Shown piece by piece: positions 2,052 through 62,746 of a DNA stretch of 64,000 nt (the first letter of the stretch is position 1; each line of letters opens with the position of its first letter). The stretch is from Candidatus Woesearchaeota archaeon (GTDB lineage Archaea > Nanobdellota > Nanobdellia > Woesearchaeales > JBJKQO01), in the NCBI GenBank assembly GCA_046705145.1, contig JBJKQO010000027.1, forward strand, positions 14,852 to 78,851, read 5' to 3'. The notes under the pieces were generated by a model. That model was not told the origin of the DNA. It did no database searches and was given only the letters and a program-made list of their open reading frames with translations. The translations under genes and the position numbers were made by a program.

Positions 2052-3704
2052 CTATTTGGTTATTATACCCAAAAGCTCACTGACATTTATCTCAAATGCT
2101 GCTACAGGAAATGCAAGTTCCCATCTGGAAAGTACGTCCGGTGATATCTCGCCTATATATGCTATCTTTTTTCCTTTGACCTTTATCCTTGCTGACCTGC
2201 CAGGTATCATCGAGGGATGGTCCTCTTCGATCACATCGTACTCAAGCCCGAGCGAGCTCATAAGGTAGTCGAAAGCCTGCCTTATCTTTGTGTAGTCTGC
2301 TGATTCCTCGCATAGTGCTGCAGCCAGCCTTTCGTTCTCAAGTATGTTTGTCTCCTGGCTTTCATCTTTCTTGAAGACTGTCCCGAACCCGAATATGTTC
2401 TGAGGATAGTCGTTGTGGCGGTTGTTTCCGAGGACTTCAAGCATGTTTGGGATGACCCATGCTCTTAGCACATCATATTCTTTTGAGAGCGAGTTCTTGA
2501 GCCCTACGATGTCTGCCTTATAGTTCATCTTGTCAAGCTGGTTCTCCCTGCTTGTGAGGTTGTATGTGCAGCATTCTATCATGCCCATACCTATGAGTAT
2601 GCTTGCAATCTTTGACTTGAGTATCTCTATGCTGTCTTCCTGACCTATTGTCGCAACAGCTGGTATTATCTCTTCAAAGTTCTCATATCCGTATGCTATC
2701 GCGATGTCTTCTGCGAAGTCAATCTGGTGGATTATGTCTGCCCTGTATGCCGGGACAAGGACGTTTCCTTCCTTGTATCCATAGCCCATCCTTTCAAGAA
2801 GCTCTTTTGCCTGCGTCTTGTTGAGGTTAAGCCCCAGTATCTTGTTTATGTAGTCAAGGTCAAGCTTTATCTCTTCAGGATCAAGGTTTGGTGTTGTTTG
2901 CTTTCCATCTGGGTACTCAAGTGTCATCGAGTATATCTTTCCGCCCATGTCTGCAAAAGCTGTGACTATTATGTTCAGGCATTTCTTAAGGACCTCAAAA
3001 TCATATCCTGAGCATTCTATGAAGACGTCAGTCGTGCTTTCTGTTATCTTTCCTGTCATGTGTGAGTTTATTATAGGCGGGACTGAAAGCACGTTGTCAT
3101 CCGCGTCTATAAATACTGCAAGCTTGTCAAGGCCTTCGACCAGGTGGGCGTATTCCTTTCCTGTCGGGTGGCGCGCAAGTATCTGTGCGGCGTTTATCTC
3201 CTCGTGCCATTCAAGCGGCCGAAAGACTATGTCTTCTGGCTTTTTTGCAAGAAACCTTATCGGAGGCTTGATCTTCTCGAAAGGGTATATGCCTATCGCT
3301 GCCTTCTTCCTGTTCCTTCCGTACGTCACGTGGAGCTTTTCCTGTATCTGGATGGCTTCTTTTATCTTCTCATCATCAAATTTCATTCCCTTGACTATGG
3401 CGCATGCAGTGTATGGCCTTACTGTCTTAAGGGACTTGTCGATTATGACTTTTTCTTTTGAGTCCTCTACCTTGTAGTGCCTGAGTCCTGTCTTCTCGCC
3501 GATAAATGATGAGAATGCTCTGGCAAATCCCTGGAGGGAAAGCATGTCAGGCCTGTTCGGGAATATCTCTACGTTTATCTCATTTCCTTCTATCGAGTCA
3601 AGGTCTGTTCCCATCATCGATATCCTGTCTTTTAGCTTTTCTAGCGGAAGCTTTTTTCCGACATATGATTCAAATTCCTCTTTGCTTACTTTTATCGTTG
3701 GCAT
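2052..3704 (-). CDS. pheT: phenylalanine--tRNA ligase beta subunit (archaeal type)
   Basis: 550 aa, the usual archaeal PheT length, with B3/B4 and class-II core-like regions. Lies directly downstream of pheS. Confidence 0.9.
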   Translation of the reverse strand: MPTIKVSKEEFESYVGKKLPLEKLKDRISMMGTDLDSIEGNEINVEIFPNRPDMLSLQGFARAFSSFIGEKTGLRHYKVEDSKEKVIIDKSLKTVRPYTACAIVKGMKFDDEKIKEAIQIQEKLHVTYGRNRKKAAIGIYPFEKIKPPIRFLAKKPEDIVFRPLEWHEEINAAQILARHPTGKEYAHLVEGLDKLAVFIDADDNVLSVPPIINSHMTGKITESTTDVFIECSGYDFEVLKKCLNIIVTAFADMGGKIYSMTLEYPDGKQTTPNLDPEEIKLDLDYINKILGLNLNKTQAKELLERMGYGYKEGNVLVPAYRADIIHQIDFAEDIAIAYGYENFEEIIPAVATIGQEDSIEILKSKIASILIGMGMIECCTYNLTSRENQLDKMNYKADIVGLKNSLSKEYDVLRAWVIPNMLEVLGNNRHNDYPQNIFGFGTVFKKDESQETNILENERLAAALCEESADYTKIRQAFDYLMSSLGLEYDVIEEDHPSMIPGRSARIKVKGKKIAYIGEISPDVLSRWELAFPVAAFEINVSELLGIITK

Positions 3705-3761
3705 TTTTGATCATCATTGGTTATATTTCAAATGAGGGTCTATGTTTAGCCCTCTTATCTT

Positions 3762-3887
3762 ATAGAAAATTTCTGTCGAAATTTTCTATTCCAAAAATTG
3801 GCTAACAAGATTAGCAAGCCGTAAAACTCCGACCTTTAGGTCGGAGTTAGGCGAGCAAATATTGGTAATTAGCCAATTTTTGTTATC
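3762..3887 (-). repeat. Family-1 nested-palindrome element, copy A (inverted relative to copies B and C)
   Basis: Reverse complement is about 96% identical over ~107 nt to copy C at 56194-56346. Outer 13-bp inverted repeat AAAAATTGGCTAA/TTAGCCAATTTTT, inner hairpin CTCCGACC-TAAA-GGTCGGAG, tail ATAGAAAATTTC..GAAATTTTCTAT. Lies in the pheS-pheT intercistronic gap. Confidence 0.7.
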
Positions 3888-5428
3888 CCTTCCATCCATG
3901 TCTTTACTGTCCTTAGTGTTTTCAGGTCGTTGTTGTATATCTGCCTGATATCGTTGAACTTGTAATAGGACATCATTATCCTTTCCATGCCCTGCCCCCA
4001 TGCAAGCACAGGAACTGCTTTTCCAAGCAGCGGCTCGACGACTTCCGGACGAAATATCCCTGATCCTCCAAGCTCTACCCATGTGTTGCTGACAGGGTGA
4101 AGGACGTCAACTTCCATGGAAGGCTCTGTATATGGGAAATGTGCTGGTCTCATCCTGACATCCTTGTAGCCCATCTTCAGGTAGAACTCCTTCAGGTATC
4201 CTTTCAGGTGCTTCAGGTTTGCGTCAGGATCTACAACTATCCCTTCGACCTGCACGAACTCGAAAAGGTGTTTCCATGACAAGGTCTCGTTCCTGTATAC
4301 CTTGTTGACTGAGAAGAACTTTGCAGGAAGGTCAGATTCCTTTAGCTTTGATATCGCCTGGGCTGACAGCACTGTCGTGTGGGTCCTGAGGAGGTTTTCT
4401 TTTGCGACGTTCTCATCCCACTTGTAGCGCCAGCCTTTGCTTCCTGTGTTTCCGCCTGCCTCGTGTGTTGCCTTCACCTTGTTTTTCAGGGGCATCGGAA
4501 GTTTTCCGCAGCTTGGATCGTCTATGTAGAACGTGTCCTGCATGTCCCTTGCAGGGTGGTCCTGGGGCACGAACAGGCTGTCAAGGTCCCAGAAGGCTGT
4601 CTGGACCATTGTGCCTGTCATCTCTGTGAATCCCATCTCAAGCCATATCTTCTTTATGTATTCTATGGACTGGTTGACAAAGTGCCTTCTTCCGCCGTAT
4701 ATCTTAGGCACGTTGATCTTTACATCATATCTTCTGAAGCTCTTGCCTTTCCATGAGCCGCTCTTGAGCATCTCAGGAGTGAGCTTTTCAAGGACGTTTT
4801 CTGATGATACTTTCTTTTTTGAAAGCCTCTTTCCAAGGTCTGTCGGGACAAGCGTCCTTTCCTTTGTGAGGGCTATCTTGATCATCTCTTTTCTTTTTTT
4901 CAGATTGTCAAGAGCGAGCTTTTCAAGGTCTTTGATGTCAGATATGCTTGCTGCTGACTTCTCAAGCCTCTTTAGCAGGTCCTCTTCAGGTGTGTTCTTT
5001 TGAAGCAGCTTTTTGCCCTGATCGGTTATCGCGACCATCCCTTTTTCAAGGCTTATCGCCATCTTCCCTTTCAGCATGCCAAGAGAAGCGTTAAACTCCG
5101 TGTTTTCAAGCTTTGTCTTCTGGAGAAGGTCTTTTATCGTGAAATCTCCTTTCTCAAGCGCCTTTAGCATCTTTCTTTCAGGAAGGCCTTCTTTTGCGTA
5201 TTCCTTTCCGTTCTTGTCCAGGGAAACCTTTTCTGCCTCCTCAGACTCTATCTTCAGAAGCCCTTTGTTCTCAAGCCACTGCGCACCGCGCATAGCTTCA
5301 ATAGGCTTTAGCCCTGACTTCTTGCATGCCTCATCAAAGGAGATGTCTGAAGCAAGAAGAGGAAGCAGCTTTCGCTCATAATTGCTGAGCGATTCCAGTA
5401 GCCTTTGCTCATCTGTCGTTTGCGCCAT
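3869..5428 (-). CDS. pheS: phenylalanine--tRNA ligase alpha subunit (archaeal type)
   Basis: 519 aa. Class-II aaRS catalytic-core motifs (FRPE, HPARDMQDTFY, GxGxER). The last four codons (TKIG) and the stop are encoded by the terminal inverted repeat of the family-1 element. Confidence 0.9.
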   Translation of the reverse strand: MAQTTDEQRLLESLSNYERKLLPLLASDISFDEACKKSGLKPIEAMRGAQWLENKGLLKIESEEAEKVSLDKNGKEYAKEGLPERKMLKALEKGDFTIKDLLQKTKLENTEFNASLGMLKGKMAISLEKGMVAITDQGKKLLQKNTPEEDLLKRLEKSAASISDIKDLEKLALDNLKKRKEMIKIALTKERTLVPTDLGKRLSKKKVSSENVLEKLTPEMLKSGSWKGKSFRRYDVKINVPKIYGGRRHFVNQSIEYIKKIWLEMGFTEMTGTMVQTAFWDLDSLFVPQDHPARDMQDTFYIDDPSCGKLPMPLKNKVKATHEAGGNTGSKGWRYKWDENVAKENLLRTHTTVLSAQAISKLKESDLPAKFFSVNKVYRNETLSWKHLFEFVQVEGIVVDPDANLKHLKGYLKEFYLKMGYKDVRMRPAHFPYTEPSMEVDVLHPVSNTWVELGGSGIFRPEVVEPLLGKAVPVLAWGQGMERIMMSYYKFNDIRQIYNNDLKTLRTVKTWMEGITKIG

Positions 5429-5534
5429 CTAGACCATCTGAAAAATATCTCATTATATATAGTTATTGGTTGGGTGGGTTACAAATTAATGTTTGGGTCT
5501 TTTCTGTTTAGAGTGGTTTAGCGAGCTATTTGTA

Positions 5535-6188
5535 TCACTTAGCAAGAACCTCCCCTGAATAAGGTATCGCTAATTCCTTAAGTCTCATATCTAAAGATGT
5601 ATACAAGCGTGGATCTGGTTCTGCTTCAACCAAAAGCCCTATAGGTTCTTTACCGCTTCTACCATTTATCAAAGGTATCCTTTGGGATGCAACAACCCCC
5701 CTTATAGGATAAGCACCTGAAGAACCCCCTCCATCCCCTCTGAGATAAAAACCATCCTGCAACCTATCTACTAGTTTAGCTAATCCCTTTACTCTTAATC
5801 TACTAAAGAGAGGATCCGTGACTATCCCTTCCATCAACCCATACATTTTTCCTTGAACGGGGCCGTTTTTAAGAGATTTAAGGTCGGATAATGCATCAAT
5901 AAACAGCGCATATGCAAAAGGAAATTCAGGATCGAAATTAGTTTGCAGGACAAATCCTGCTTTAGTTAAGTCTTCATGAACTACAACTAACTCCACAGGG
6001 GTTCTTCCTGAAGTAATAACATCAGCTGCGTTTAATCTTAAATATTTTCCTTTTGGAGTTTTTCCCGTCCTTCCTTGCCCACCATAAGTCACAACAAGAC
6101 CCTGTATTCGTTCCATCAAAAGCGATCTTAATTTTTCTACATCTTTTGATAAATTGTCAGATTTGCTATCTCCCATCCTTTCTCTCAC
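5535..6188 (-). CDS. hypothetical protein (no recognisable domain; no cysteines; atypical codon usage)
   Basis: 217-aa ORF with clean boundaries. Pro and Gly codons CCC/CCT/GGA are used far more than in neighbouring genes. Unique intergenic DNA on both sides. Confidence 0.45.
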   Translation of the reverse strand: MRERMGDSKSDNLSKDVEKLRSLLMERIQGLVVTYGGQGRTGKTPKGKYLRLNAADVITSGRTPVELVVVHEDLTKAGFVLQTNFDPEFPFAYALFIDALSDLKSLKNGPVQGKMYGLMEGIVTDPLFSRLRVKGLAKLVDRLQDGFYLRGDGGGSSGAYPIRGVVASQRIPLINGRSGKEPIGLLVEAEPDPRLYTSLDMRLKELAIPYSGEVLAK

Positions 6189-6433
6189 CTTTGTCGTTGT
6201 TTGTTTTGTCTTCTTGGTATGGCTCCTTCTACCTGGTCCGTGTCCTTGAGTTTGGGAGGTCAGAATTCATCTTTGTCTTGATCGATGTCTTCAGTGACCC
6301 CGGAGAAACTCAAGGATTCACTGATAAAAAAAGTAGAAGTAACCAAAAAATCTAAAGCTGTCACTGCCTTTTATTGCTGTCATGTTGTTCTTTGGCAATG
6401 ATCTCATGAGAAATTGGGAATCAGGGGGTATAT

Positions 6434-8413
6434 TTAAACTTTTTGATTGTCAAAACCAAGCAGTTTAGCTGCAAGCTGGATAAAATCAAGCTTGAAGAAA
6501 TTTATATCCCCAAAAGGGATTATTATATGTACTGGCCGGCCAAGCATATTTTCAGATATGCACCTCTTGCAATGATTAAAATTGTTTTGGGCCTCTGCAT
6601 AATCCTTACAGGCAGAGATCACAATCCTATCAGTCTTTGTAGATATTGAAAAAAACACATTAGGATTTGTGGCCTTGTGAGGGTGGCCTTCATCCTCACC
6701 TGAGGGAATAGTCTGCCTGTACCTGCTAAAGACTAGCAGGTCCATCCCTATCTTCCAAAAGTCAGGAAAATTGACAACCTTTAAAACACCATTATCAATA
6801 AGCCTCTTTCTCAGCTTGCATATTGTCGGAACTGAAACAACCATCCTTTTTGCCAGTTCTGCGACAGTCGCATCAGGATATTTCATAAGTCCATATACCA
6901 ACTTTTTTTCCATCTGGCTTAAAACTATAGCCTTATGCTCTGGCTCAGCCGGCTTTTGATATTTAACATCCAACTCAAATCTTTTAGCAAGGATCCCTGC
7001 AAAGTTGAAAAAATTGCAAAAAATACTATTGTCAGAAGGAAAGTGAATCACATCATGATCCTCAAACCTGATTTTTTGCTTATGCATGATTTCTTCATAG
7101 ATATCATGGCTCTTTTTGAAATCAGACAGATTCTTTGATATCACAAAAGAAAAAAAATCCTGGCTTGATGAAACAAAATAAACTTTTTCAGGAGAGGACT
7201 TGACCTTTTCAAACATTTTTTCATGAAAACTTAACGGTATCTCCCCTTTTCCAGCCGTATCGATATATCCTAGCTTGCCATAGGTAAAACTAAAAAGGTC
7301 GCAGCCTATGATGTCAAATCTTGGCACGTATCTTGTCTTGTAGTATCCTTCGCTCTTGAGCTTGTTCTTTATGGAATTGACCGTTGTCTTCCTAAGGCCT
7401 ATCTTTTCAGCCAGCTCCTTTACGCTAAGATGGGGATACCTGACAAGCCCATAAAATGCAAGCTTCTCTTTTTTTGTAAGGTTAATCCTCTTTTCATCTA
7501 TCCTTTTTAGCTTAAGGTCAAGCTTTTTTGCGTATTCCTGAAGCTGAAGATTAAGCTTTTTTATCTCCTGCGTCTTTCTTTCAACCTCAACCTCTATCAG
7601 TTTTCTTGAGTCGTTGAGCGCCTGATCATCCCTCTTTTTCTCAGTCACATCCCTTATTATAGCGACAAAAGAAAGGGGTTTTCCTGATATGTCTTTCACA
7701 AGTCCTACTGAAAGTTCACATGGGATCTCTTTTCCGTCCCTTCTGAGCAGGTTTAACTCGATCTTTTGGCTCTTGCCTGTGTCTGATATATGTTTCATGC
7801 TTTCTCTGACTTTCTTGTGGTTTTTTAATGAAACGAACCTAAAGCAGCTCATGCCCACAAGATTTGTCCCTTCTTCAAAACCATGCAGCTCAACAAGCTC
7901 CTTATTGTGAGAAGTAATCTTTCCATCGGTCGCCACAACAGCTATCGCGTCAGGTGAGAACTCAAATATGTTCCTTATCTTTTCATTTTTGCTGTGAAGG
8001 GCTTCATTGACCTTCTTTAGTTCGCTTATGTCAGTTATGACTGCAAAGCTTCCTTGAAAGTTTTCGCCATTGCCAAATATTGGGCTTGGTGACATCAGGG
8101 TGTATAGGTTTTCGCCGTTCTTTTTTTTCCATGTCAGCTCATAAGGTGAAGCTATGCTTTTTTTCCTTAGTTCCATCTGGTCAAGGTAAATCTTCTTATT
8201 TTCCTTTTCAAGAAAATCGGTCGCTTTCCTCCCTATGATCTCGTCCCTGGAGTAGCCAAACAGCTCTATGACCCTGTCATTGACATAAGTAAGGATCCTG
8301 TTCCGGTCTACTATCCCAAAACCTTCTCTCATCGTATGGATGAGGTCGCTAAATGGAATATCATCTATCCCTAACATGTCTTTTTCGGTTTTAGTTTTTT
8401 TTTCTTTTTTCAT
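6434..8413 (-). CDS. PAS-PAS sensor fused to a coiled coil and two winged-HTH DNA-binding modules (transcriptional regulator)
   Basis: 659 aa. Two PAS S-box-like regions (residues ~20-130 and ~150-260), a Lys/Glu-rich coiled coil, then two repeats of an HTH motif (KEKLAFYGLVRYPHLSVKELAEKIGLRKTTV and MEKKLVYGLMKYPDATVAELAKRMVVSVPTI). Confidence 0.6.
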   Translation of the reverse strand: MKKEKKTKTEKDMLGIDDIPFSDLIHTMREGFGIVDRNRILTYVNDRVIELFGYSRDEIIGRKATDFLEKENKKIYLDQMELRKKSIASPYELTWKKKNGENLYTLMSPSPIFGNGENFQGSFAVITDISELKKVNEALHSKNEKIRNIFEFSPDAIAVVATDGKITSHNKELVELHGFEEGTNLVGMSCFRFVSLKNHKKVRESMKHISDTGKSQKIELNLLRRDGKEIPCELSVGLVKDISGKPLSFVAIIRDVTEKKRDDQALNDSRKLIEVEVERKTQEIKKLNLQLQEYAKKLDLKLKRIDEKRINLTKKEKLAFYGLVRYPHLSVKELAEKIGLRKTTVNSIKNKLKSEGYYKTRYVPRFDIIGCDLFSFTYGKLGYIDTAGKGEIPLSFHEKMFEKVKSSPEKVYFVSSSQDFFSFVISKNLSDFKKSHDIYEEIMHKQKIRFEDHDVIHFPSDNSIFCNFFNFAGILAKRFELDVKYQKPAEPEHKAIVLSQMEKKLVYGLMKYPDATVAELAKRMVVSVPTICKLRKRLIDNGVLKVVNFPDFWKIGMDLLVFSRYRQTIPSGEDEGHPHKATNPNVFFSISTKTDRIVISACKDYAEAQNNFNHCKRCISENMLGRPVHIIIPFGDINFFKLDFIQLAAKLLGFDNQKV

Positions 8414-8565
8414 CTCCTACCTTTAAGTGATACTAAAAAAGTAATGGTTTGTTTTTATGAATAAACAAAAAAAGACCATATTTTATCTATTAGGAAGTTC
8501 AGGCTTAAATAATTTTCTAAAAAAGTTTAGTAAAATCCAAAAATATCAAAAAAAATGAATAATAG

Positions 8566-8582
8566 AAAACTATTTAAATATG
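8566..8582 (+). promoter_or_regulatory. candidate archaeal TATA-box/BRE upstream of the MCP gene
   Basis: AT-rich CTATTTAAATATG about 70 nt upstream of the ATG at 8652. A GGTGG ribosome-binding site lies 7 nt upstream of that ATG. Confidence 0.3.
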
Positions 8583-8651
8583 GGTTCCCGTAAATAATAC
8601 GGTAGGTCAATTGTAATTTATTTTGATTTGAAAAAAAAGAGGTGGGCACAG

Positions 8652-10811
8652 ATGAAACTAATGCAAAAACTTTTGTTAGGATTCGGGATAGTAGTTGTCC
8701 TGGTCCTGATCCTTGGCGCTGTAGGGATAATCGGCCTTGGGAAGGTCGTCGGAAGCGGGGAGCAGACAATTGGAGATATACAAAAATCACAATTTCTTGA
8801 CCAGAAGCTAAACGACCATCTTCTGTGGATGGACAAGCTTACTAACCAGCTTCTGAATGATGTTGAGTTCAACGCGCAGACAGACTGGCACAAGTGCGGC
8901 TTCGGAACCTGGTATTATGGCATAAAAGAAAGCGAAGAATACGCAAAACTTTCTCCTGAAGAAAAGAAAGTATTTGACGAGATGGAACAGTACCACATAG
9001 AGCTGCACGAGTCAGGACAGGAGATAAAAGAGCTATATAGCCCTACAGACCTGACACTTGACGGGTTCCTTGCAGAAAAAGAAGGGGATCATCTGAAATG
9101 GATGATGTCCCTTATGGACACCTGGGAAGATAATAATAAAGTATTTACATCTACCACAGATCCAAGAAAATGCGGGTTTGGACAGTGGTATTACAGCTTC
9201 ATAGGCTCAGAGGACTACAATAAGTTTCCTCCAGAGATAAGGAAGGCTTTTGATGATATGGAATCCATCCACTCAGACCTGCATCACTCTGCAGAGGGCA
9301 TACTTGCTCTTGCAGGACCTGATGGAAAGATCCATGATCCGGAATCAGTAGAAAAGGCAAAGCAGATCTTCATTACAGTAACAGAACCTCGTGCAGATGA
9401 GATGCTCAAAAAGTTCGCTATAGTTAGAGCATACATAAAGGAGCAGACAGAGAAGAAGCAAAAGTCTATGGAAGTTTTCCAGACAAAAAGCGAGCCTGCT
9501 GTAGAGCACATGATGACCCTTTTTGGAGAGTATAAGACTATAGTAGATGAGGAGGCAAAGAAAAGCCAGGATAACACTAAAAGCCAGCAAGCAGGAACCC
9601 GTGCGCTTCTTGTAATATTTGTCGTCATATGCGGAGCGCTTGCCATGGTCATAGGAGTGTTTTTTGCACTCATGATAACAAGGCCCGTCAACAAGACAGT
9701 CGCCATACTAAAAGACATCGCTGAAGGCGAAGGAGATCTCACAAGGAGGATGAACGTAAAATCAAAGGATGAGATCGGGGAGATGGGGAAATGGTTTGAC
9801 AAGTTCATGGGAAACATGAACGCGATGATAGTAAGGATATCAAAAAATGCGGCATCATCTGCTGCGACTGCTGAAGAGCTAAGCGCTTCATCAGAGCAGG
9901 TGAATGCCTCAACAGAGCAGGTCTCAAGCACCGTCCAGGAGATAGCCAAAGGAAGCCAGCAGCTGAGCAAGTCTGCTGGAGACACTAAAAACGATGTTGA
10001 GCAGCTTGTAAGCTCTATAAAAACAGTTACTAACTCAGCTATGGAATCAGCAAAGAAGGCTATCGAAGCGAAAGATGCTGCGACAAAAGGAGGAGAATCC
10101 GCAAAGCTTGCTGGAGAGAAGATGCAGTCCATAAGCGAGAGCGTAAGCTCATCTGCTGCAGTTGTCCAGGATCTTGGATCAAAAAGCGAGCAGATAAACA
10201 AGGTTGTCGAAGTCATCAATTCTATATCTGAACAGACGAACCTGCTAGCGCTAAACGCAGCGATAGAAGCAGCAAGAGCAGGAGAAGCTGGACGCGGATT
10301 TGCTGTTGTTGCAGACGAGGTAAGGAAGCTTGCTGAAGAATCACAAAAAGCGACAAAACAGATAGAAGCCATGATATCAGAAATAGTCTCAAGCACTAAA
10401 AACGCTGTTGATTCCATGAGCAAAGGCAAGACAGCAGTTGATGAAGGCAACAAGGTTGTCGGAGAAGCGCTGAATGCGCTTCAGGTGATAAGCCAGAATG
10501 TTGCTGAAGTGGCTTCCCAGGTCGAGATGATAAGCGGTGCAACGCAGCAGCAGCTTGTAAGTTCAGAAAAGGTGCAGAAATCGATAGAAGGAGTATCTGC
10601 AGTAGCAGAGGAGTCTGCTGCCGGAAGCGAGGAGGTAAGCGCCTCAGTAGAACAGACGACAGCGTCGATGCAGCAGGTAGCGACATCTGCCCAGAACCTT
10701 GCAAAGAGTGCGGATGACCTGAAAAGGCTTGTCGGCAAGTTCAAGGTCGATGAAAGCGGGATGCAGGATGAACCTCCCGCTGCGCCTGCCTCCCCTGAAA
10801 AGAAGAAATGA
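8652..10811 (+). CDS. methyl-accepting chemotaxis protein with two tandem CZB (chemoreceptor zinc-binding) domains between two TM helices
   Basis: The CZB signature appears twice: H-x3-W ... W-H/R-K-C-G-F-G-x-W-Y-Y ... H-x3-H. Two TM helices, a HAMP region, and a C-terminal Ala/Ser/Glu/Gln-rich heptad MCP signalling domain (LLALNAAIEAARAGEAGRGFAVVADEVRKLAE). Start chosen at the RBS-supported ATG at 8652 rather than 8628. Confidence 0.85.
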   Translation: MKLMQKLLLGFGIVVVLVLILGAVGIIGLGKVVGSGEQTIGDIQKSQFLDQKLNDHLLWMDKLTNQLLNDVEFNAQTDWHKCGFGTWYYGIKESEEYAKLSPEEKKVFDEMEQYHIELHESGQEIKELYSPTDLTLDGFLAEKEGDHLKWMMSLMDTWEDNNKVFTSTTDPRKCGFGQWYYSFIGSEDYNKFPPEIRKAFDDMESIHSDLHHSAEGILALAGPDGKIHDPESVEKAKQIFITVTEPRADEMLKKFAIVRAYIKEQTEKKQKSMEVFQTKSEPAVEHMMTLFGEYKTIVDEEAKKSQDNTKSQQAGTRALLVIFVVICGALAMVIGVFFALMITRPVNKTVAILKDIAEGEGDLTRRMNVKSKDEIGEMGKWFDKFMGNMNAMIVRISKNAASSAATAEELSASSEQVNASTEQVSSTVQEIAKGSQQLSKSAGDTKNDVEQLVSSIKTVTNSAMESAKKAIEAKDAATKGGESAKLAGEKMQSISESVSSSAAVVQDLGSKSEQINKVVEVINSISEQTNLLALNAAIEAARAGEAGRGFAVVADEVRKLAEESQKATKQIEAMISEIVSSTKNAVDSMSKGKTAVDEGNKVVGEALNALQVISQNVAEVASQVEMISGATQQQLVSSEKVQKSIEGVSAVAEESAAGSEEVSASVEQTTASMQQVATSAQNLAKSADDLKRLVGKFKVDESGMQDEPPAAPASPEKKK

Positions 10812-10828
10812 TCATGCATTGGTCTTTT

Positions 10829-10890
10829 GTCAGGACTTGTTTATGAGAAAACCCACCTCTACAAGTCCTGACATTTTTTTTATTTTTTTT
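10829..10890 (+). terminator. hairpin plus oligo-T terminator downstream of the MCP gene
   Basis: 12-bp inverted repeat GTCAGGACTTGT/ACAAGTCCTGAC immediately followed by T8AT8. Confidence 0.5.
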
Positions 10891-10898
10891 GATTTCTG

Positions 10899-11123
10899 TT
10901 TATTGCGAGTTTTTCTAATAATTTTTGGTCAGCATCAATTTGCGAGGCTTTTCAGAGAAAAAGACTCAGAGTTTGGGGGGGTCGCTTGCAAACTTGTTTG
11001 CAAGTCCGCCAAGATATTCTTGGCGATACACCATCCGGGGCTCAAACGGATGAAGCAGGTATCAAGAGCACAGCCGAGCCGATGCTGACCAAAAAAAGAA
11101 TTATTCGAAAAACTCGCTTATTG
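10899..11123 (+). mobile_element. Family-2 MITE-like element, copy 1 (long form)
   Basis: ~37-bp terminal inverted repeats: TTATTGCGAGTTTTTCTAATAATTTTTGGTCAGCATC at the 5' end, and the reverse complement of GATGCTGACCAAAAAAAGAATTATTCGAAAAACTCGCTTATTG at the 3' end. Internal CCATCCGGGGCT block and palindrome TTGCAAACTTGTTTGCAA shared with other copies. The ORF 10729-11088 inside it is judged spurious. Confidence 0.6.
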
Positions 11124-11219
11124 TATATAATATACCAAGAAGATAGTATTTCCTGATGACCAATCAAAATCATAAAAGACATAAAGAATAATAGAATTAA
11201 AAAAACAAAGAAAAAAGCC

Positions 11220-12023
11220 TTACTTGACAGGCTTCATGTTCTTCCATCCTAGCTCAAACATCTCTTCAAGAGCTGATGCGAAAAATGGCGTGTTTACCCA
11301 TATCCCGACATCGTATGTAGGATGGACCTCGTGGTCTCCAAGGACCATGAAGATAAGCTCTTTTCCGTCAACTACTGTGAATCTTGCCTTGCTGTTTGTG
11401 TGCCTGACTTCAGCGATCTTTGAGATCTCTTTTGCTGCGTCTTTTGATTCTTTTGTTATAGGAGCTGCAATCCTTACCTTGACTCCTCTTTTTGCAACCT
11501 GCTCAAGAGTTGGCTTAAGCCCTTCAACCTTTCTCATAAGTCCCTGGGCTGTGGTGTGGATTGTGACTGATTTCTCAGCGTTTCTTATCGTAAGCTCAAG
11601 ATGGTTGTAAAGGTTGTGCCTTCCCCTTAAGGATCCTGAAAGCTCTGTTGGCTCGACAAGCTCAACTCCCTGTGTGTGGAGCGTGTTAAGCTCGTTTAGG
11701 ACGTCTGTCCTCTTAAGCTCTTCAAGCCTTTTTACTTTCTCTTCTGCGTCGATCCTCATGTTTTTCTTGACTCTCTCAACAACTTCCTGTGGTGGAACTG
11801 CGATGTACTTGATAGGCTTTCCAAGCTTCATCACGACAAATCCTTTCTTTTCAAGGCTTTCCAAAACGTCATAAGAACGAGATCTTGGTACGTTTGCGAT
11901 GTCAGAAAGCTCACCTGCAGTTGAAACACCACGAGAAAGAAGCGCTGCCCACACTTTTACCTCGTAGAGGTTAAGCGCGAAATAACGCCTTAGTTTGCTT
12001 AAAAATTCTTCTTTAACGATCAT
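11220..12023 (-). CDS. TrmB-family transcriptional regulator (sugar-responsive type)
   Basis: 267 aa. N-terminal wHTH (YEVKVWAALLSRGVSTAGELSDIANVPRSRSYDVLESLEKKGFV) plus a C-terminal TrmB effector-like domain. Confidence 0.75.
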   Translation of the reverse strand: MIVKEEFLSKLRRYFALNLYEVKVWAALLSRGVSTAGELSDIANVPRSRSYDVLESLEKKGFVVMKLGKPIKYIAVPPQEVVERVKKNMRIDAEEKVKRLEELKRTDVLNELNTLHTQGVELVEPTELSGSLRGRHNLYNHLELTIRNAEKSVTIHTTAQGLMRKVEGLKPTLEQVAKRGVKVRIAAPITKESKDAAKEISKIAEVRHTNSKARFTVVDGKELIFMVLGDHEVHPTYDVGIWVNTPFFASALEEMFELGWKNMKPVK

Positions 12024-12277
12024 TGTTTACACCCCCCTTTTTTTGCTAACTACGCAATAAGTACATCATTTTGTGATACTACTATTAATATGTTACGGTT
12101 TTTTACCGCGCCCCAGTACTTTCATTGCGTGTTAACAAACAGGGTTATATACTGGACAGTTTTAAATTTTTATAATTATTCTAAAATAGTAAAAAAATTT
12201 TTATGTATTTAAACTTTTGGCTTATTAAGGCTATATGTTACAAAGTATTTAAAAAGAAATAGAATTTCCTATAGGGT

Positions 12278-13000
12278 ATGCAGATAAAAAATCTCCGACT
12301 GATAGGGACAAATCACATAGCAAAACAGTCCCTGGAAGATGTCAAAAAAACGATAGAATCAGATATGCCTGACATAATCGCAGTTGAGCTTGATAAGAAA
12401 AGGCTTCCTGCTGTGCTTGACAGGACAAAAAGAAAAAGGTCGCTTTCAGCGATAAGGACAATCGGTTTTAAGGGTTTTATATTCAGCATCATCGGAGAAT
12501 GGGCAGAAAGAAAACTAGGAGAAAAGACAGGGGTTCTTCCCGGAGAGGAGATGGCAACAGCCATAAGGGCTGCCCAGGAGAAAAGGATAGGGCTTGCGCT
12601 TATAGATCAGGACATCGAGGTCACCCTAAGAAACTTCTCCCGGACGATCTCCTGGAAAGAGAAGTTTCGGTTCCTTGGAGACATATTCAAGGGTTTCTTC
12701 TATGCCCTGACAGGAAAGCAGCCTAAGTTCAGCTTTGACATCAATAAGGTGCCTGAATCAGAGCTTATCGAGAAGATGATAGAAGAGGTGAAGGGAAGGT
12801 ATCCTAACATCTACAAGGCGCTGATATCAGACAGGGATGCATACATGGCAGGAAAGCTTGAGGCGATAATGCGAAACCACCCTGACAAGAAGATAATAGC
12901 ATTTATGGGTGCAGGGCACATGAAAGGCATAAAGCGCATCCTTGACGACAGGTTCAAGGATGATAATGCGTATTCTTTCGGATATAGTGTTGAGATGTGA
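12278..13000 (+). CDS. TraB/PrgY/GumN-family protein
   Basis: 240 aa. N-terminal LIGTNHIAKQS (GTxH) motif and a C-terminal FMGAGHMKG motif typical of the TraB family. Confidence 0.65.
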   Translation: MQIKNLRLIGTNHIAKQSLEDVKKTIESDMPDIIAVELDKKRLPAVLDRTKRKRSLSAIRTIGFKGFIFSIIGEWAERKLGEKTGVLPGEEMATAIRAAQEKRIGLALIDQDIEVTLRNFSRTISWKEKFRFLGDIFKGFFYALTGKQPKFSFDINKVPESELIEKMIEEVKGRYPNIYKALISDRDAYMAGKLEAIMRNHPDKKIIAFMGAGHMKGIKRILDDRFKDDNAYSFGYSVEM

Positions 13001-13014
13001 GTTTAGTTCATTAA

Positions 13015-13215
13015 GCTCAGTAGAAAGTCTCGCTTCGCTCGGAGGCATCGGCTCGCTTGTGCTTCTTTAGCAAGAATGTGCTGCGTCCCCGGATGGGGTG
13101 TCGCCAAACGAGTTTGGCGGACTCATGAACAAATTCATGAGCAACCCCCCGCGACGCACTTGATTTATTAGCAACAGAAGCTCGCAAAACTGATGCCCTC
13201 ACACTTTCTACTGAG
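13015..13215 (-). mobile_element. Family-2 MITE-like element, copy 2 (divergent, inverted)
   Basis: Reverse complement carries CATCAGTTTTGCGAGCTTC, the GGGGGGTTGCTCATGAATTTGTTCATGAGTCCGCCAAACTCGTTTGGCGACACCCCATCCGGGG block and GCACAAGCGAGCCGATGCCTCC, each matching copy 1. Outer 13-bp inverted repeat CTCAGTAGAAAGT. Starts 15 nt after the TraB stop. Confidence 0.45.
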
Positions 13216-13266
13216 CCTTTATCAAACTAAAACTTTTTATAATAGGACATACAAGATAGGCTATAA

Positions 13267-14004
13267 ATGTTTTCAAGAAGCTACATTGACATGATAAAGA
13301 GGTACTATCCCTTCACGATGAAGGAGTTTGGAGGGCTTATAGTAACTATAGCTGTCCTTACATTAGTGGCTGGCCTTGATGACAAGAGCGAGACATTTGT
13401 CCTTGCACACTGGCTGGGAAACCTGCTTAGGGTCTTCATGATCGTCGTGATATCAGTCATGGTGCACCACACCGGGCAGAGGCTATGGGGTTTTAAGGAA
13501 GGCTTCACGGTCGAGCAGTATGTCTGGTGGTACGGTATCATACTCGCTCTTGCAGTGGCTTTTGTGACCAGGGGTAAGATATGGCCTCTTGCAGTCACAG
13601 GAACTATGATACATCACCACAGGATCCACAGGCTTGGTGAGTTCAGGTACGGGCCTAATATCCACAAGTTCTCGATAGTGGCGTTTGCAGGACCAATATC
13701 GTGCATACTTCTTGTGACGTTCCTTAAGGTGGTCGAAAGGATGATCACAGGAGCCTACTCCACTTCTGGATTCATACACGCGCTTTTCATGTTCAACCTG
13801 GGGTATGCTGCATGGAACCTCCTGCCTATACCCCCTCTTGATGGAAGCAGGATATTCTTTGACTCAAGGAATATTTACGTGCTTATCGCAGTGTCATTTT
13901 GGGCGTATTTCATAATGGCGCTAAACGGCATCTATTCATACATAATCGCACTCCTTATAGGGATCGTGATGTGGGCAATATACATATTCGGCAAGAAAGG
14001 GTGA
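13267..14004 (+). CDS. integral membrane protein, hypothetical (His-rich loops; no HExxH)
   Basis: 245 aa with six or more predicted TM helices. Confidence 0.45.
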   Translation: MFSRSYIDMIKRYYPFTMKEFGGLIVTIAVLTLVAGLDDKSETFVLAHWLGNLLRVFMIVVISVMVHHTGQRLWGFKEGFTVEQYVWWYGIILALAVAFVTRGKIWPLAVTGTMIHHHRIHRLGEFRYGPNIHKFSIVAFAGPISCILLVTFLKVVERMITGAYSTSGFIHALFMFNLGYAAWNLLPIPPLDGSRIFFDSRNIYVLIAVSFWAYFIMALNGIYSYIIALLIGIVMWAIYIFGKKG

Positions 14005-14009
14005 TATGG

Positions 14010-14339
14010 ATGGTACTTAACTTTTATAGGGTGTGGCCGCAGCTTACTGCTCTTGGGCTTCTTGTGATAGGTTTCATATTCTCGATATCTGTCTGGAACT
14101 CTGCAGCCCTGACATATATACTGATCATAATATTTGGGCTTGGTTTCGGAAGGATGTGGTGGAAATACAAAAACGACTTCAGGTTCACATGGTTTCTCCT
14201 TATGGTAGGGTTCATAATAGGTTATCTTATCGGCGCTTTTGGAGGCAGCAGGATAATAACGTTCATACTCTACATACTTAGCATAGCAGCAGGGTACTAC
14301 ATACATGAGAAAAACATCTTGCACAGTAAAGAATTTTAA
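14010..14339 (+). CDS. small integral membrane protein, hypothetical
   Basis: 109 aa with 3 TM helices. Start taken at the internal ATG (MVLNFY) because the upstream part of the tracked ORF overlaps the preceding gene in another frame. Confidence 0.4.
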   Translation: MVLNFYRVWPQLTALGLLVIGFIFSISVWNSAALTYILIIIFGLGFGRMWWKYKNDFRFTWFLLMVGFIIGYLIGAFGGSRIITFILYILSIAAGYYIHEKNILHSKEF

Positions 14340-14346
14340 GGAAGGC

Positions 14347-14901
14347 ATGTGGAAGATAAGCGCCAACAGCAATATCTACATCCTTGATCTCGAGCAAGCG
14401 ATAGCGATAGATTCAGGGGACAGGGACTATCATGATGAGATAAAAGATGTTCTCCCTTCGATAATTGACCCTTCCAGGATCAGGATAGTGATAATGACTC
14501 ATCTTCACTATGACCATATCGGCTGCTTTGACCTTTTTCCTGATGCAGAGTTCTATGCTTCAGAATCTGCAATAAGGGATATGAAGGAAAGCAGGATAAT
14601 GACTATACTTAACGCGAAGATAGGCGGGATGTTTGACGTCGACCTTAAGCCGGTCGAAAGCATAAAGGAAAAGCTTAAGGCGATGGGGCTTAAGATCCTC
14701 GCCACTCCTGGCCACTCGCGCGGAAGCATCTGCCTGTGGCATGAGAAAGAAAAGGTCCTGTTTTCAGGAGACACGCTTTTTGACAAAGGCATCACAGGCA
14801 GGGTTGACCTTCCGACATCTGTTCCAGAGGAGATGGCAGGATCCCTTGAAAAGCTAAGAAAGCTCGGATACAAGGTTCTTTGTCCGGGGCATGATTATTA
14901 A
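14347..14901 (+). CDS. MBL-fold metallo-hydrolase
   Basis: HLHYDHIG (HxHxDH) and PGHSRGS motifs. Start at the GGAAGG-supported ATG 14347; an alternative start is 14305. Confidence 0.75.
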   Translation: MWKISANSNIYILDLEQAIAIDSGDRDYHDEIKDVLPSIIDPSRIRIVIMTHLHYDHIGCFDLFPDAEFYASESAIRDMKESRIMTILNAKIGGMFDVDLKPVESIKEKLKAMGLKILATPGHSRGSICLWHEKEKVLFSGDTLFDKGITGRVDLPTSVPEEMAGSLEKLRKLGYKVLCPGHDY

Positions 14902-14939
14902 GAAAAATATAAAAAAGATATCAAAAACCTTAAGACAAT

Positions 14940-15524
14940 ATGACACTACCACTAACAAGAGAGCAGGCACTGGAGCTTCTCAGGTCCATGCCTCAGACTG
15001 AGAGCGACATGAACCATTACCTTGAGACAGAAGCGATAATGAGAGCCCTTGCAAGGCATTTTGGCGAGGATGAAGATTTCTGGTCTATGATAGGGCTTCT
15101 GCATGATGTGGACTGGGCCCTTACAAGGGATGACTGGAGGGAGCACACTATCAAAGCAGAGGATATCTTAAAGGAGAAAGGTTTTGGTGAGGACTTCATC
15201 CGGATCGTGCAATCCCATGGTTACGGCCATGATGATATCCCTGCATTTAAGGATATGAGAAGGACAAGAAAGATCGAGCATGCGCTAGTCGCTTCTGAGA
15301 CGCTTACAGGCATAATATTTGCCTATGCTCTTTTGAGGGGAAAAAGGATTTCTGACATGGAACTAAAAGGCCTTAAGAAAAGGTTCAAGGAAAAGAGCTT
15401 TGCTGCAAACTGCAACAGGGAACTGGTAAGAGAGATAGAGAAGACTGGACTTGAGCTTGATCCCTTCCTGAAGATGGCGATAGATGCTGTCAGGGAAATA
15501 AAGGATGAATTAGGGCTGGAGTGA
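14940..15524 (+). CDS. HD-domain phosphohydrolase
   Basis: 194 aa with an H..HD motif (LLHDVDW) and a downstream His/Asp. Confidence 0.7.
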   Translation: MTLPLTREQALELLRSMPQTESDMNHYLETEAIMRALARHFGEDEDFWSMIGLLHDVDWALTRDDWREHTIKAEDILKEKGFGEDFIRIVQSHGYGHDDIPAFKDMRRTRKIEHALVASETLTGIIFAYALLRGKRISDMELKGLKKRFKEKSFAANCNRELVREIEKTGLELDPFLKMAIDAVREIKDELGLE

Positions 15525-15575
15525 AATTTCCGTAAAGGAAAAATTAATATATTATCAAAGCTGATTTTAAAATAT

Positions 15576-16481
15576 ATGAAAAGATATAATCTCCTGATAA
15601 TCGTTGACGCAGAGGGATGCACAGGAATAAAAGAATGGAAAGATGTCGTCATAAACTATTATACCGATAGCCCTACTGAAAAAGTAAGGGAAGCGATGGC
15701 TAAAGATGTCAATGCAGTTATAGAAGGAATTTCAAAATTTGATAGGGCTGGCAAAGTTGTCATTTTGGATTCGCATGCTCGTGGAAAAAATATAAGAAAA
15801 GAAGATATTAATTTTTTCGGGATGGATGTCACCCTGAAATCATGGAGTATTAAGAATTTCAAAAAATACTCTGGGATCAGTGATTTTGGTATCCTGGTGG
15901 GGGCTCATGGAAAATTCGGAAGCTCAGATGGAAAGCCGCCTATGTATAAATCAGAATTTGAAGATGGGAAAAAAACCGGGCTTTCACATTTCAATATGTT
16001 CGGGGTAAAAAATGCATTCCTTAACAGCAGGTCAATTGGAGAATCTATAAGTTTTATCATGCTTTTAAAAGAGATGAAAGTCCCGCTTGTATACTGCTGT
16101 GGATCAAAAGCAGCGATTGATGAATTGAATCGTTTTGCTTACGAGATCAAGACTTCAATAACCAAAAATGGGCGCAGAACATACAACAAAGATAAAGTAA
16201 GGAAAAATATTACAAAATCTACTATTTCTGCATTAAAAGATGCTGCAAAAGGAAAAGGGTTTATCGGGCTGGATGATAAGAGATTAAAATATGTCTCATT
16301 CTCCTTGGAATTCAAGAACCCAGGAGATAAAAATGCAGACAAAAAAGTGAAAAAACAATTAAAAAAATTTAATACCCTGCATAAGATCAATTACGTCAGG
16401 CTAGAAGGCAGAAAAGTGTTCTTTTTTGGCAAAGGAAAAACACCCTATTTTAACGATTACAAATTGATTAATGAAGCATAA
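15576..16481 (+). CDS. peptidase M55 (D-aminopeptidase DppA-like) family protein
   Basis: Motifs in DppA order: LLIIVDAEGCTGI, VVILDSHARG, ILVGAHGKFGS, LVYCCGSKAAIDEL. Lys-rich and embedded in an AT-rich island. Confidence 0.5.
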   Translation: MKRYNLLIIVDAEGCTGIKEWKDVVINYYTDSPTEKVREAMAKDVNAVIEGISKFDRAGKVVILDSHARGKNIRKEDINFFGMDVTLKSWSIKNFKKYSGISDFGILVGAHGKFGSSDGKPPMYKSEFEDGKKTGLSHFNMFGVKNAFLNSRSIGESISFIMLLKEMKVPLVYCCGSKAAIDELNRFAYEIKTSITKNGRRTYNKDKVRKNITKSTISALKDAAKGKGFIGLDDKRLKYVSFSLEFKNPGDKNADKKVKKQLKKFNTLHKINYVRLEGRKVFFFGKGKTPYFNDYKLINEA

Positions 16482-16655
16482 GAAAACCTAACCTCTTCTC
16501 ATTTGATCCGGCAATCTGAAAAAAAAATCATGACCAGAACGCATGCCCATCAAAAAGCTCATAAACCAAACAATCCTACAGAATGATTAAATTCCAATGT
16601 AAGAAGAACCTTCTTTCAAAAGCTTTATATACGTAGATTTATTGCACTTCGTATT

Positions 16656-17801
16656 ATGGAAACCAAGAAAGACTGCAGGCATTTCGTGGGATACATGCCG
16701 TGTAAGCACCACAAGGAAGACGGGTCTGTGTGCGAGGACTGCAAGCACTACAAGAAGAACGGGAAGAAGATACTTCTGATAAACTTCGTCGGGCTCGGTG
16801 ACGTGCTTAGGACTACTGCCATGATAAGGCCTCTTAAGAAGAAGTATCCTGACTGCCACATAACATTTCTTACAGGAAAGCAGGGCTATGACATAATAAA
16901 GAACATCCCTGAGATAGAAAAACCTCTTCTTATGAGCCTTGAGACCGCGCTCAGGCTGATGGTAGAGAAGTTTGACATCATGATCAACTATGACAAGCAG
17001 GATGACGCGCTTGCGATAGCAGCTCTTGTGAAGGCAAAGCACAAGCACGGCATTTACATGGATGAGTCAGGCCACCTGGCAGCATTTGACAAGAAGGATG
17101 AGATACTCGTAGACATAGGTCTTTCAGATGAGATAAAGGGATCGAACAAGAAGACGATGCAGCAGATAATGTTTGAGGTGGCAGAGCTTGAATACAACGG
17201 CGACATGCCTCTTTACAACATCTCTGAAGAGTCAAGGCAGTATGCAAAGGAGATGTTCAAGAAGAACGGCATAAGCCCAAAAGACATAGTGATAGGCCTT
17301 AACACTGGCGTAGGCGGCAGGATATTTCCGAACAGGAAGTGGCCTGCAGAATATTTTATCAGGCTTTCTGAGATGATCGAGAAGGATCTTAAGGCCAAGG
17401 TCGCGATACTTGGAGGCCCTGAAGAAAAAGAGCTCAACAAGAGGATAATCCGGGGCACAAAGGCAAAAGTGATCGATGCAGGCACTGAGAACACGATAGA
17501 GCAGTACTCTGCGCTTGTCGAGAGATGTGATGTCATCGTGACTGTCGACACGCTTGCGCTGCATCTTGCAGCAGCCCTAAGCATCCCTGTTGTCGCTCTT
17601 TTCGGACCTACAAACAAGCACGAGCTTGAGATCTACGGCAAGGGCAAGAAGCTTGCGATAGATGAGCTCAAATGCATATTCTGCTACAAGCACAGGTGCC
17701 GCGTCTGCGAAAGCGACGTAGCTAAGTGCATGGAGATGATCACCCCTGAGATGGTCCTTGATGCGATAAGGGAAACCCTCAAGGAACATGGTAGAAAATG
17801 A
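16656..17801 (+). CDS. glycosyltransferase family 9 (heptosyltransferase-like) with an N-terminal Cys-rich extension
   Basis: ILLINFVGLGDVLRTTAMIRPLKKKYPDCHITFLTG GT9 signature, preceded by CRHFVGYMPCKHHKEDGSVCEDCKHY. Confidence 0.75.
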   Translation: METKKDCRHFVGYMPCKHHKEDGSVCEDCKHYKKNGKKILLINFVGLGDVLRTTAMIRPLKKKYPDCHITFLTGKQGYDIIKNIPEIEKPLLMSLETALRLMVEKFDIMINYDKQDDALAIAALVKAKHKHGIYMDESGHLAAFDKKDEILVDIGLSDEIKGSNKKTMQQIMFEVAELEYNGDMPLYNISEESRQYAKEMFKKNGISPKDIVIGLNTGVGGRIFPNRKWPAEYFIRLSEMIEKDLKAKVAILGGPEEKELNKRIIRGTKAKVIDAGTENTIEQYSALVERCDVIVTVDTLALHLAAALSIPVVALFGPTNKHELEIYGKGKKLAIDELKCIFCYKHRCRVCESDVAKCMEMITPEMVLDAIRETLKEHGRK

Positions 17802-62639: not shown

Positions 62640-62746
62640 ATTCCTAATAGGACACACCCCCTTAAGAAAAAAAACAAAATAACAAGTATATAAAATGTTA
62701 GGCCCCACTTGAATCAAGTAGTAAAAATTCAAAAAAAACAATATCC

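Follow-up and report, generated by a model that had tools for sequence, protein, structure and literature searches.

The gene at positions 8652 to 10811 of the 64-kb stretch of contig JBJKQO010000027.1 analysed here (the whole of which is called the window) encodes a methyl-accepting chemotaxis protein (MCP). We consider, with rather better than even confidence, that this protein is a class-I MCP with two transmembrane (TM) helices, native to a Woesearchaeota-like DPANN archaeon, whose sensor of two tandem chemoreceptor zinc-binding (CZB) domains reads external Zn2+ or redox state. The parts of the receptor follow one another in the order TM1, CZB, CZB, a long return helix, TM2, HAMP and MCP signalling domain, and were located in the window as follows.

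8652..10811, plus strand: coding sequence of the MCP, 719 aa, stop codon included (open reading frame (ORF) list; Pfam CZB twice, HAMP and MCPsignal).
8664..8741, plus strand: TM1, about aa 5–30 (Kyte-Doolittle 19-residue windows above 1.6, window starts 1–18).
8817..9008, plus strand: core of CZB repeat 1, aa 56–119, motif CGFGTWY (Pfam, motif match, hhalign).
8817–8819, 8895–8897, 8994–8996 and 9006–9008, plus strand: predicted Zn ligands of repeat 1, H56, C82, H115 and H119, respectively.
9090..9284, plus strand: core of CZB repeat 2, aa 147–211, motif CGFGQWY (Pfam, motif match).
9090–9092, 9171–9173, 9270–9272 and 9282–9284, plus strand: predicted Zn ligands of repeat 2, H147, C174, H207 and H211, respectively.
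9339..9596, plus strand: modelled long return helix, aa 230–315, 86 residues, from the distal end of the sensor to TM2 (residues 200–285 of the AlphaFold2 (AF2) model).
9603..9680, plus strand: TM2, about aa 318–343 (hydropathy above 1.6, window starts 312–329).
9660..9815, plus strand: HAMP domain, aa 337–388, directly after TM2 (Pfam PF00672, 38.2 bits, cut-off 25).
10053..10604, plus strand: MCP signalling domain, aa 468–651, with the tip motif NLLALNAAIEAARAGE at aa 530 (Pfam PF00015, 153.4 bits).

An earlier note on this DNA had described a chemoreceptor with two tandem CZB domains and had proposed scoring both repeats with the CZB profile hidden Markov model as a check. Both repeats are bona fide by the Pfam threshold: against a gathering cut-off of 29.4 bits for PF13682, repeat 1 (aa 34–131) scored 54.9 bits alone and repeat 2 (aa 132–230) 43.9 bits, with 88.8 bits in two stretches for the whole 719-aa product. 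A regular expression composed from the published motif (H-x2-[WFYL]...C-x-[LFMVI]-G-x-[WFLVI]...H-x3-H) matched the receptor exactly twice, at aa 56–119 and aa 147–211. Published CZB domains are described by a CX(L/F)GXW(Y/L) motif and a core of three histidines and one cysteine (PMC8262984), and the motif is present in both repeats, as CGFGTWY and CGFGQWY. The first element, given previously as H-x3-W, proved to be H-x2-W (HLLW, HLKW).

Alignment by hhalign of a profile of 40 repeats from the receptor family to Escherichia coli DgcZ (a sequence identical to PDB 3t9o, and to 4h54 except for C52A) gave an E-value of 2.9e-5 and placed H56, C82, H115 and H119 on H22, C52, H79 and H83, respectively. 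The NCBIfam DgcZ model matched weakly over aa 49–127 (E 5.7e-7). Across the 40 repeats the ligand positions and their companions (H, W, C, G, H and H) were invariant, an invariance owed partly to selection, since the repeats had been chosen for a complete motif. The sensor has no cysteines other than C82 and C174. Each CZB module is predicted to bind Zn2+. The two copies share 43% identity as protein, and a search for a DNA-level repeat between them gave nothing meaningful; the duplication is therefore old, and a recent one was rejected.

Hydropathy analysis identified exactly two segments of TM strength, at about aa 5–30 and aa 318–343. The N-terminus ahead of TM1 is short (MKLMQK) with two lysines, and the start of HAMP overlaps the end of TM2. 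HAMP and MCP signalling domains need a cytoplasmic location for contact with CheA and CheW. Because there are only two TM segments and both of these domains follow TM2, the 287 residues between the TM helices should be extracytoplasmic, and hydropathy and domain logic together predict that both CZB domains lie outside the cytoplasm. This is where the earlier note had placed the pair; it had named a placement of the repeats in the cytoplasm as the outcome that would count against it, and such a topology was rejected on the same domain logic. Furthermore, the receptor shows the features of a class-I transmembrane MCP, namely a signalling domain with the conserved hairpin tip NLLALNAAIEAARAGE, a HAMP domain after TM2 and two TM helices bracketing the sensor. 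Chemoreceptor equivalogs in NCBIfam matched it only partially. The positive-inside signal is clear at the N-terminus only and is weak at TM2, where the 20-residue flanks hold four Lys/Arg before the helix and three after.

The family to which the sensor belongs is large. An exhaustive HMMER search with a four-sequence sensor profile against 1.84 billion cluster representatives returned 3121 representatives at E ≤ 1e-3, 1400 at ≤ 1e-10 and 407 at ≤ 1e-30, overturning an impression of rarity drawn from the nine matches of a word-indexed search. Complete CZB motifs by the strict expression numbered two to five in 132 of the best 150 representatives (two in 108, three in 23 and five in one); 17 others had a single motif, being fragments or having one degenerate site. 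Within these 150 the motifs hardly vary in position, falling near aa 60, 152 and, where present, 243. TM2 lies near aa 318 where there are two repeats and, in most proteins with three, near aa 445; it is found downstream of the CZB motifs in every family member long enough to reach it. The longest array seen belongs to P0011, of 1028 aa, with five complete motifs (aa 60, 152, 243, 333 and 423) and TM2 at about aa 691; its gene was found at L081 761–3847 and L082 754–3840, in two metagenome assemblies, one of them marine.

When one genome per species was considered (GTDB), 143 relatives were found, and in 74 of the best 80 of these loci the receptor carried at least two CZB domains between its TM helices. 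The loci with this multi-CZB receptor come from a dozen bacterial phyla, most of them anaerobic; hosts include Desulfobacterota, Bacteroidales, Marinilabiliales, Planctomycetota, Zixibacteria, Spirochaetota, Thermotogota, Fibrobacterota and Latescibacterota. The host lineages of the family are largely anaerobic or sediment-dwelling. Only one archaeal locus occurs among the best 80, in a Methanosarcinales metagenome-assembled genome (MAG), and its receptor has a single CZB domain. Archaeal members of the multi-CZB family are few. The tandem external architecture is that of a widespread, conserved and uncharacterised receptor family. Hence the earlier statement that an external CZB pair on an archaeal MCP is unusual was only partly right: the archaeal host is uncommon, but the tandem external layout is conserved in a large family.

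The Methanosarcinales locus (L027) adds a second lineage of archaea in which a CZB domain is external. Its single-CZB transmembrane chemoreceptor (9836–11608; flanks 2579–20236) has on one side several consecutive genes of archaellin size together with a FlaI-like ATPase, and on the other a che cluster of 4HB-MCP, CheW, CheC, CheB, CheA and CheC.

Some members (P0059, P0071, P0041, P0107 and P0117) keep the two-repeat scaffold, but one of their repeats lacks at least one Zn ligand, as where DLLKW stands in place of DHLKW or the Cys is replaced. The sequences of such degenerate repeats suggest pseudo-sites.

Within the family, repeat 1 copies are 46% alike and only 31–33% alike to repeat 2 copies. 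As repeat 1 copies are closer to each other than to repeat 2, the duplication predates the spread of the family. The window receptor falls in a small subfamily with P0001, P0022, P0041, P0062 and P0076 (39–52% identical). P0062 (705 aa), an orthologue and one of the few archaeal members, is 46% identical to it from end to end and is encoded on a contig with an archaeal/eukaryal-type uS15. P0076, encoded directly after a cheW gene, is 39% identical in the sensor and 54% in the cytoplasmic part. Beyond this subfamily, sensor relatives are about 30% identical and their identified hosts are bacterial. The cytoplasmic half has other relatives: its best match is 71% identical, its closest modules are MCPs without CZB domains, and it is 46–53% identical to Woesearchaeota MCPs and about 40% to Bacillus-type MCPs. 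The named proteins among the cytoplasmic matches at 46–64% identity are three from Woesearchaeota and one labelled Phycisphaerae. Because the relatives of the two halves differ, the sensor and signalling modules have had different histories; module shuffling is usual among MCPs. From these comparisons the sensor is probably of bacterial origin and acquired long ago.

The gene itself is resident in a DPANN-type (Woesearchaeota-like) archaeon, as the archaeal markers of the window, the relatives of its RadA and the composition of the gene together indicate. The markers are the alpha and beta subunits of an archaeal-type PheRS, TrmB regulators, RadA (Rad51 plus HHH), an archaeal CCA-adding enzyme and NurA; they flank the receptor on both sides, with PheRS at 2–5 kb and RadA at 58 kb of the same 64-kb stretch. 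The best named relatives of RadA, at 70–78% identity, are from Candidatus Woesearchaeota, Nanoarchaeia or Nanobdellota. The receptor gene has a GC content of 46% overall and of 47% at third codon positions (GC3), both within the range of the neighbouring genes. The full-length orthologue P0062, on a contig with archaeal-type uS15, also speaks for a native archaeal gene. The archaeal host named in the earlier note is borne out by the markers and the RadA relatives, and bacterial contamination and recent horizontal transfer were rejected on the flanking archaeal genes and the composition. The MCP, RadA, PheRS alpha and the TrmB and PAS regulators are each the sole member of their 90%-identity cluster in a collection of 15 billion proteins, and all five come from one NCBI contig of 96,461 bp; with these five singletons and a best RadA relative at 78% identity, the lineage is poorly sampled. 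Scans of the window for tRNA genes and Rfam families were empty.

That the CZB pair is cytoplasmic after all, through an inverted or non-membrane topology, or that the gene is a bacterial contaminant in an archaeal bin, seems to us very improbable. The weak positive-inside signal at TM2 and the overwhelmingly bacterial relatives of the sensor could be read in that direction. However, HAMP and the signalling domain, for which the cytoplasm is required, follow TM2 in a protein with two TM helices only, and the layout of TM1, CZB domains and TM2 recurs in the full-length family members examined. Moreover, the gene lies in a contiguous 64-kb stretch with archaeal PheRS and RadA and resembles its neighbours in composition. 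For the cytoplasmic half the nearest relatives are MCPs that carry other sensors, the named ones at 46–64% identity being the three Woesearchaeota proteins and the one labelled Phycisphaerae.

Outward-facing CZB domains have been recorded before. In a census of 10,140 CZB sequences "nearly all" were cytosolic and 384 (3.9%) were periplasmic, at the N-terminus of membrane chemoreceptors (PMC8262984), in agreement with the earlier remark that CZB domains are usually cytoplasmic. Periplasmic CZB domains on membrane chemoreceptors are thus an already described, known minority. The same study (Perkins et al., 2021, mBio, PMC8262984) found CZB domains to be "essentially all" bacterial and counted one sequence from Woesearchaeota; a search of its supplement for that sequence did not find it. 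The window receptor resembles the periplasmic subgroup in having an N-terminal external CZB on a transmembrane MCP, the 3His/1Cys core and the CX(L/F)GXW(Y/L) motif, and in lacking an Arg after the Cys, the residue there being Gly in both repeats. It differs in its two CZB domains in series and its archaeal host, PMC8262984 making no mention of tandem copies, and other members of the multi-CZB family have up to five CZB domains. A literature search found no paper on tandem, double or dual CZB domains in one chain.

Among the characterised proteins, E. coli DgcZ (YdeH; PDB 3T9O/4H54) has a helical CZB domain whose four Zn ligands align with those of the window receptor, but it is cytosolic with a single CZB, regulates a GGDEF cyclase and shows a sequence identity of about 19%. 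Helicobacter pylori TlpD and Salmonella McpA couple a CZB to an MCP signalling domain with a chemotaxis output. They supply the precedents for a mechanism: in one model HOCl oxidises a Cys-Zn redox switch (PMC6715182), and in a more recent one the pool of soluble Zn2+ is sensed as a proxy of the redox potential outside (bioRxiv 10.64898/2026.07.03.735341). Both come from host-associated bacteria, where they respond to HOCl, reactive oxygen species or O2. Each chain of these soluble, cytosolic receptors has a single CZB, placed after the signalling hairpin, whereas the CZB domains of the window receptor are N-terminal, duplicated and predicted to be external, and would signal via TM2 and HAMP.

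The structure of the sensor was modelled with AF2. For aa 31–317 (four-sequence alignment) the model is all-helical with a mean predicted local distance difference test score (pLDDT) of 84.4. In it, a long helix continuing from TM1 bears H56, the CxFGxW motif sits on a short turn/helix and HxxxH on another helix, after which the pattern repeats. No Pfam family covers aa 231–317. Repeat 1 modelled alone (40-sequence alignment) is likewise all-helical, with a pLDDT of 95.7. When the whole-sensor model was compared with the PDB by Foldseek, the top matches were PilJ (8wdf, E 0.024), TorS-TorT (3o1i/3o1h) and McpS (2yfa/2yfb). These matches are weak (E 0.02–0.14, none ≤ 0.001, TM-score 0.37–0.43). 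In the model the sensor appears shaped like a bimodular helical sensor, the resemblance being one of shape only. Like the HBM (McpS), PilJ and TorS sensors, it forms an elongated, all-helical unit of about 290 aa between two TM helices, predicted to be extracytoplasmic, with two stacked modules and long helices linked to the TM segments. In contrast, the ligands of those sensors are organic acids or a partner protein, Zn sites are absent from them, and no significant sequence, profile or structural match of the window sensor to HBM, PilJ or TorS sensor domains was obtained: HBM was absent from the Pfam matches of the receptor, and the PilJ family matched weakly (E 0.083) at aa 395–477, in the cytoplasmic part outside the sensor.

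Several observations weigh against a sensor of external Zn2+ or redox state. Foldseek of the single-repeat model against the PDB gave nothing useful and no CZB structure, DgcZ 3T9O not being recovered, and PDB sequence searches with whole-sensor and repeat profiles likewise did not recover DgcZ. Because both approaches missed it, the structural membership of the repeats in the CZB fold is taken from sequence profiles only, just as the topology is deduced from hydropathy and domain logic. Both Zn binding and the signal of periplasmic or tandem CZB domains are predictions. DgcZ has a subfemtomolar affinity for Zn, and Zn was not removed from TlpD by chelator (PMC6715182); as these proteins hold Zn extremely tightly, reversible Zn sensing is not self-evident. 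The members with one degenerate site raise the question of whether both sites are needed, and they may not be. Lastly, of the 57 window ORFs of 90 aa or more, 50 were scanned and none is a che or archaellum gene.

The tight binding of Zn by DgcZ and TlpD, and the difficulty of removing it, also bears on an explanation in which the Zn sites are purely structural: they would stabilise an elongated bimodular helical sensor, the true signal being another small molecule or a docking partner protein. With the best PDB matches of the whole-sensor model being the bimodular helical sensors PilJ, TorS-TorT and McpS, and a minority of family members having lost ligands in one repeat while keeping the fold, this explanation is the main rival, but we judge it unlikely. 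The Foldseek matches are weak and of the kind that long helical bundles give, and Pfam finds neither HBM nor any other ligand-binding-domain family in the sensor. Moreover, most family members keep all four ligands and the CxFGxW turn in both repeats, and in the CZB domains that have been studied mutation of the Cys alters signalling (PMC6715182; bioRxiv 10.64898/2026.07.03.735341).

For the tandem CZB domains as the sensing element, the arrangement in the model allows a mechanism to be proposed. Each module would hold one Zn2+ through the His of helix 1, the Cys of the CxFGxW turn and the HxxxH of the last helix. Helix 1 of repeat 1 would be continuous with TM1, and the return helix would run continuously into TM2. 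Loss of Zn, or modification or oxidation of the Cys thiolate, may slacken the bundle in which helix 1 packs with the Cys turn and the HxxxH helix; the changed packing would then pass through the return helix and TM2 to HAMP and the signalling hairpin, which would modulate CheA and so the rotation of the archaellum. With the CZB sites facing outward, soluble Zn2+ outside the cell would be within direct reach of the receptor, whose function may be to sense directly the redox state or the Zn2+ available externally. In anoxic, sulfidic habitats the soluble Zn2+ pool would track redox, sulfide and oxidant chemistry, and the receptor would let the cell follow gradients of redox or metal. Such a role in navigation fits the hosts among which the family is found. 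Oxidants (HOCl) had been mentioned in the earlier note as cues of CZB domains; HOCl is an idea from host-associated systems and an unlikely signal for the window organism.

A link to chemotaxis is suggested by two relatives, P0076 adjoining cheW and the Methanosarcinales single-CZB MCP lying inside an archaellum/che cluster. Woesearchaeota MAGs carry archaellum genes, and CheABCD were expressed in one MAG (PMC11606122). Sensing by the CZB domains could also be real and its output something other than swimming, with a Che-like pathway and archaellum- or pilus-like filaments controlling attachment to a host cell or surface. Besides motility, the archaellins of DPANN may have a part in binding to the host (PMC11606122), and the lack of che and archaellum genes in the window is compatible with such an output. 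Nevertheless, we regard it as distinctly improbable: the cytoplasmic module is a standard HAMP and MCP hairpin, closest to ordinary archaeal and Firmicute-type chemoreceptors, and relatives are found beside cheW and within the archaellum/che cluster.

The label of orphan receptor given in the earlier note is correct in that no che genes lie nearby, within the ORFs covered, but it carries little weight, since lone MCP genes occur elsewhere; a 4HB chemoreceptor gene in a Woesearchaeota MAG likewise stands alone. MCP genes are commonly scattered in genomes.

The ORF of the receptor (plus strand, end 10811) can start at TTG 8628 or ATG 8652, and its product is identical to P0010 of the public protein collection. 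ATG 8652, where the interval given in the earlier note begins, is the likely translation start, because a GAGGTG lies seven nucleotides upstream, and the residue numbers of the earlier note, counted relative to 8628, match ATG 8652 better. The signals around the gene, read directly from the sequence, are the following.

8573..8580, plus strand: TTTAAATA, a putative promoter element resembling an archaeal TATA box, some 72 nt ahead of the ATG.
8639..8644, plus strand: Shine-Dalgarno-like GAGGTG, 7 nt ahead of ATG 8652.
10829..10890, plus strand: perfect 11-bp hairpin (10829–10839 / 10862–10872) followed by a long T-run, putative terminator.

On this reading of the letters the TTTAAATA box is a putative promoter element, and the hairpin with its T-run, 3' of the receptor gene, a probable terminator. 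Its own upstream box and Shine-Dalgarno-like sequence, together with the hairpin and T-run after the stop, suggest that the gene is monocistronic.

Oriented divergently from the chemoreceptor gene is a gene at 6434–8413 (minus strand) for a protein of 659 aa in which two PAS domains precede two DNA-binding regions of the winged-helix (TrmB/MarR) type. A PAS-rich regulator is also encoded directly upstream of the orthologue P0062 (L085 4809–6524). A conserved regulator-receptor pair was not supported, the two regulators sharing generic PAS similarity only.

A large cell-surface glycan cluster occupies about 16650–45200 of the window. It encodes GT9 (heptosyltransferase-family), GT4, GT2 and PMT_2 glycosyltransferases, a flippase, an SIS isomerase, a pfkB kinase, a cytidylyltransferase-phosphatase, a split transketolase, several epimerases and two radical-SAM enzymes, one of them with a B12-binding domain. 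The combination of GT9, SIS isomerase, kinase and nucleotidyltransferase resembles a heptose pathway. Four long ORFs of the window have no Pfam family at E ≤ 1e-5, namely 35538–37502 (minus strand, 654 aa), 37646–38794 (plus strand, 382 aa), 38791–40764 (plus strand, 657 aa) and 61389–62819 (minus strand, 476 aa); three of the four are embedded in the glycan cluster.

For the window gene, what is gained in practice is a corrected annotation and an expression construct with set limits, aa 31–317; more widely, the family is a candidate for a sensor that guides cells by redox or metals where oxygen is absent. Discussion of CZB domains at present treats them as sensors in the bacterial cytosol, responding to HOCl or to a zinc pool that reflects external redox. 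A duplicated CZB sensor that faces outward would touch the external zinc pool directly, and would offer a clean test of the zinc-as-redox-proxy model. The abundance of the family in sulfate reducers, sediment Bacteroidales, Planctomycetota, Spirochaetota and comparable groups, along with its presence in a DPANN archaeon, carries CZB biology beyond host-associated bacteria. More tentatively, and with the chances in our estimation somewhat below even, serial external CZB domains (two to five per chain) may constitute a distinct, undescribed class of sensor in anaerobic bacteria and a few archaea, DPANN among them, reading external Zn2+ or sulfide/oxidant chemistry at the Cys-Zn site. If so, such receptors would permit taxis by redox or metal cues with no need for Zn to be taken up, and the number of repeats may tune the range or cooperativity of the response.

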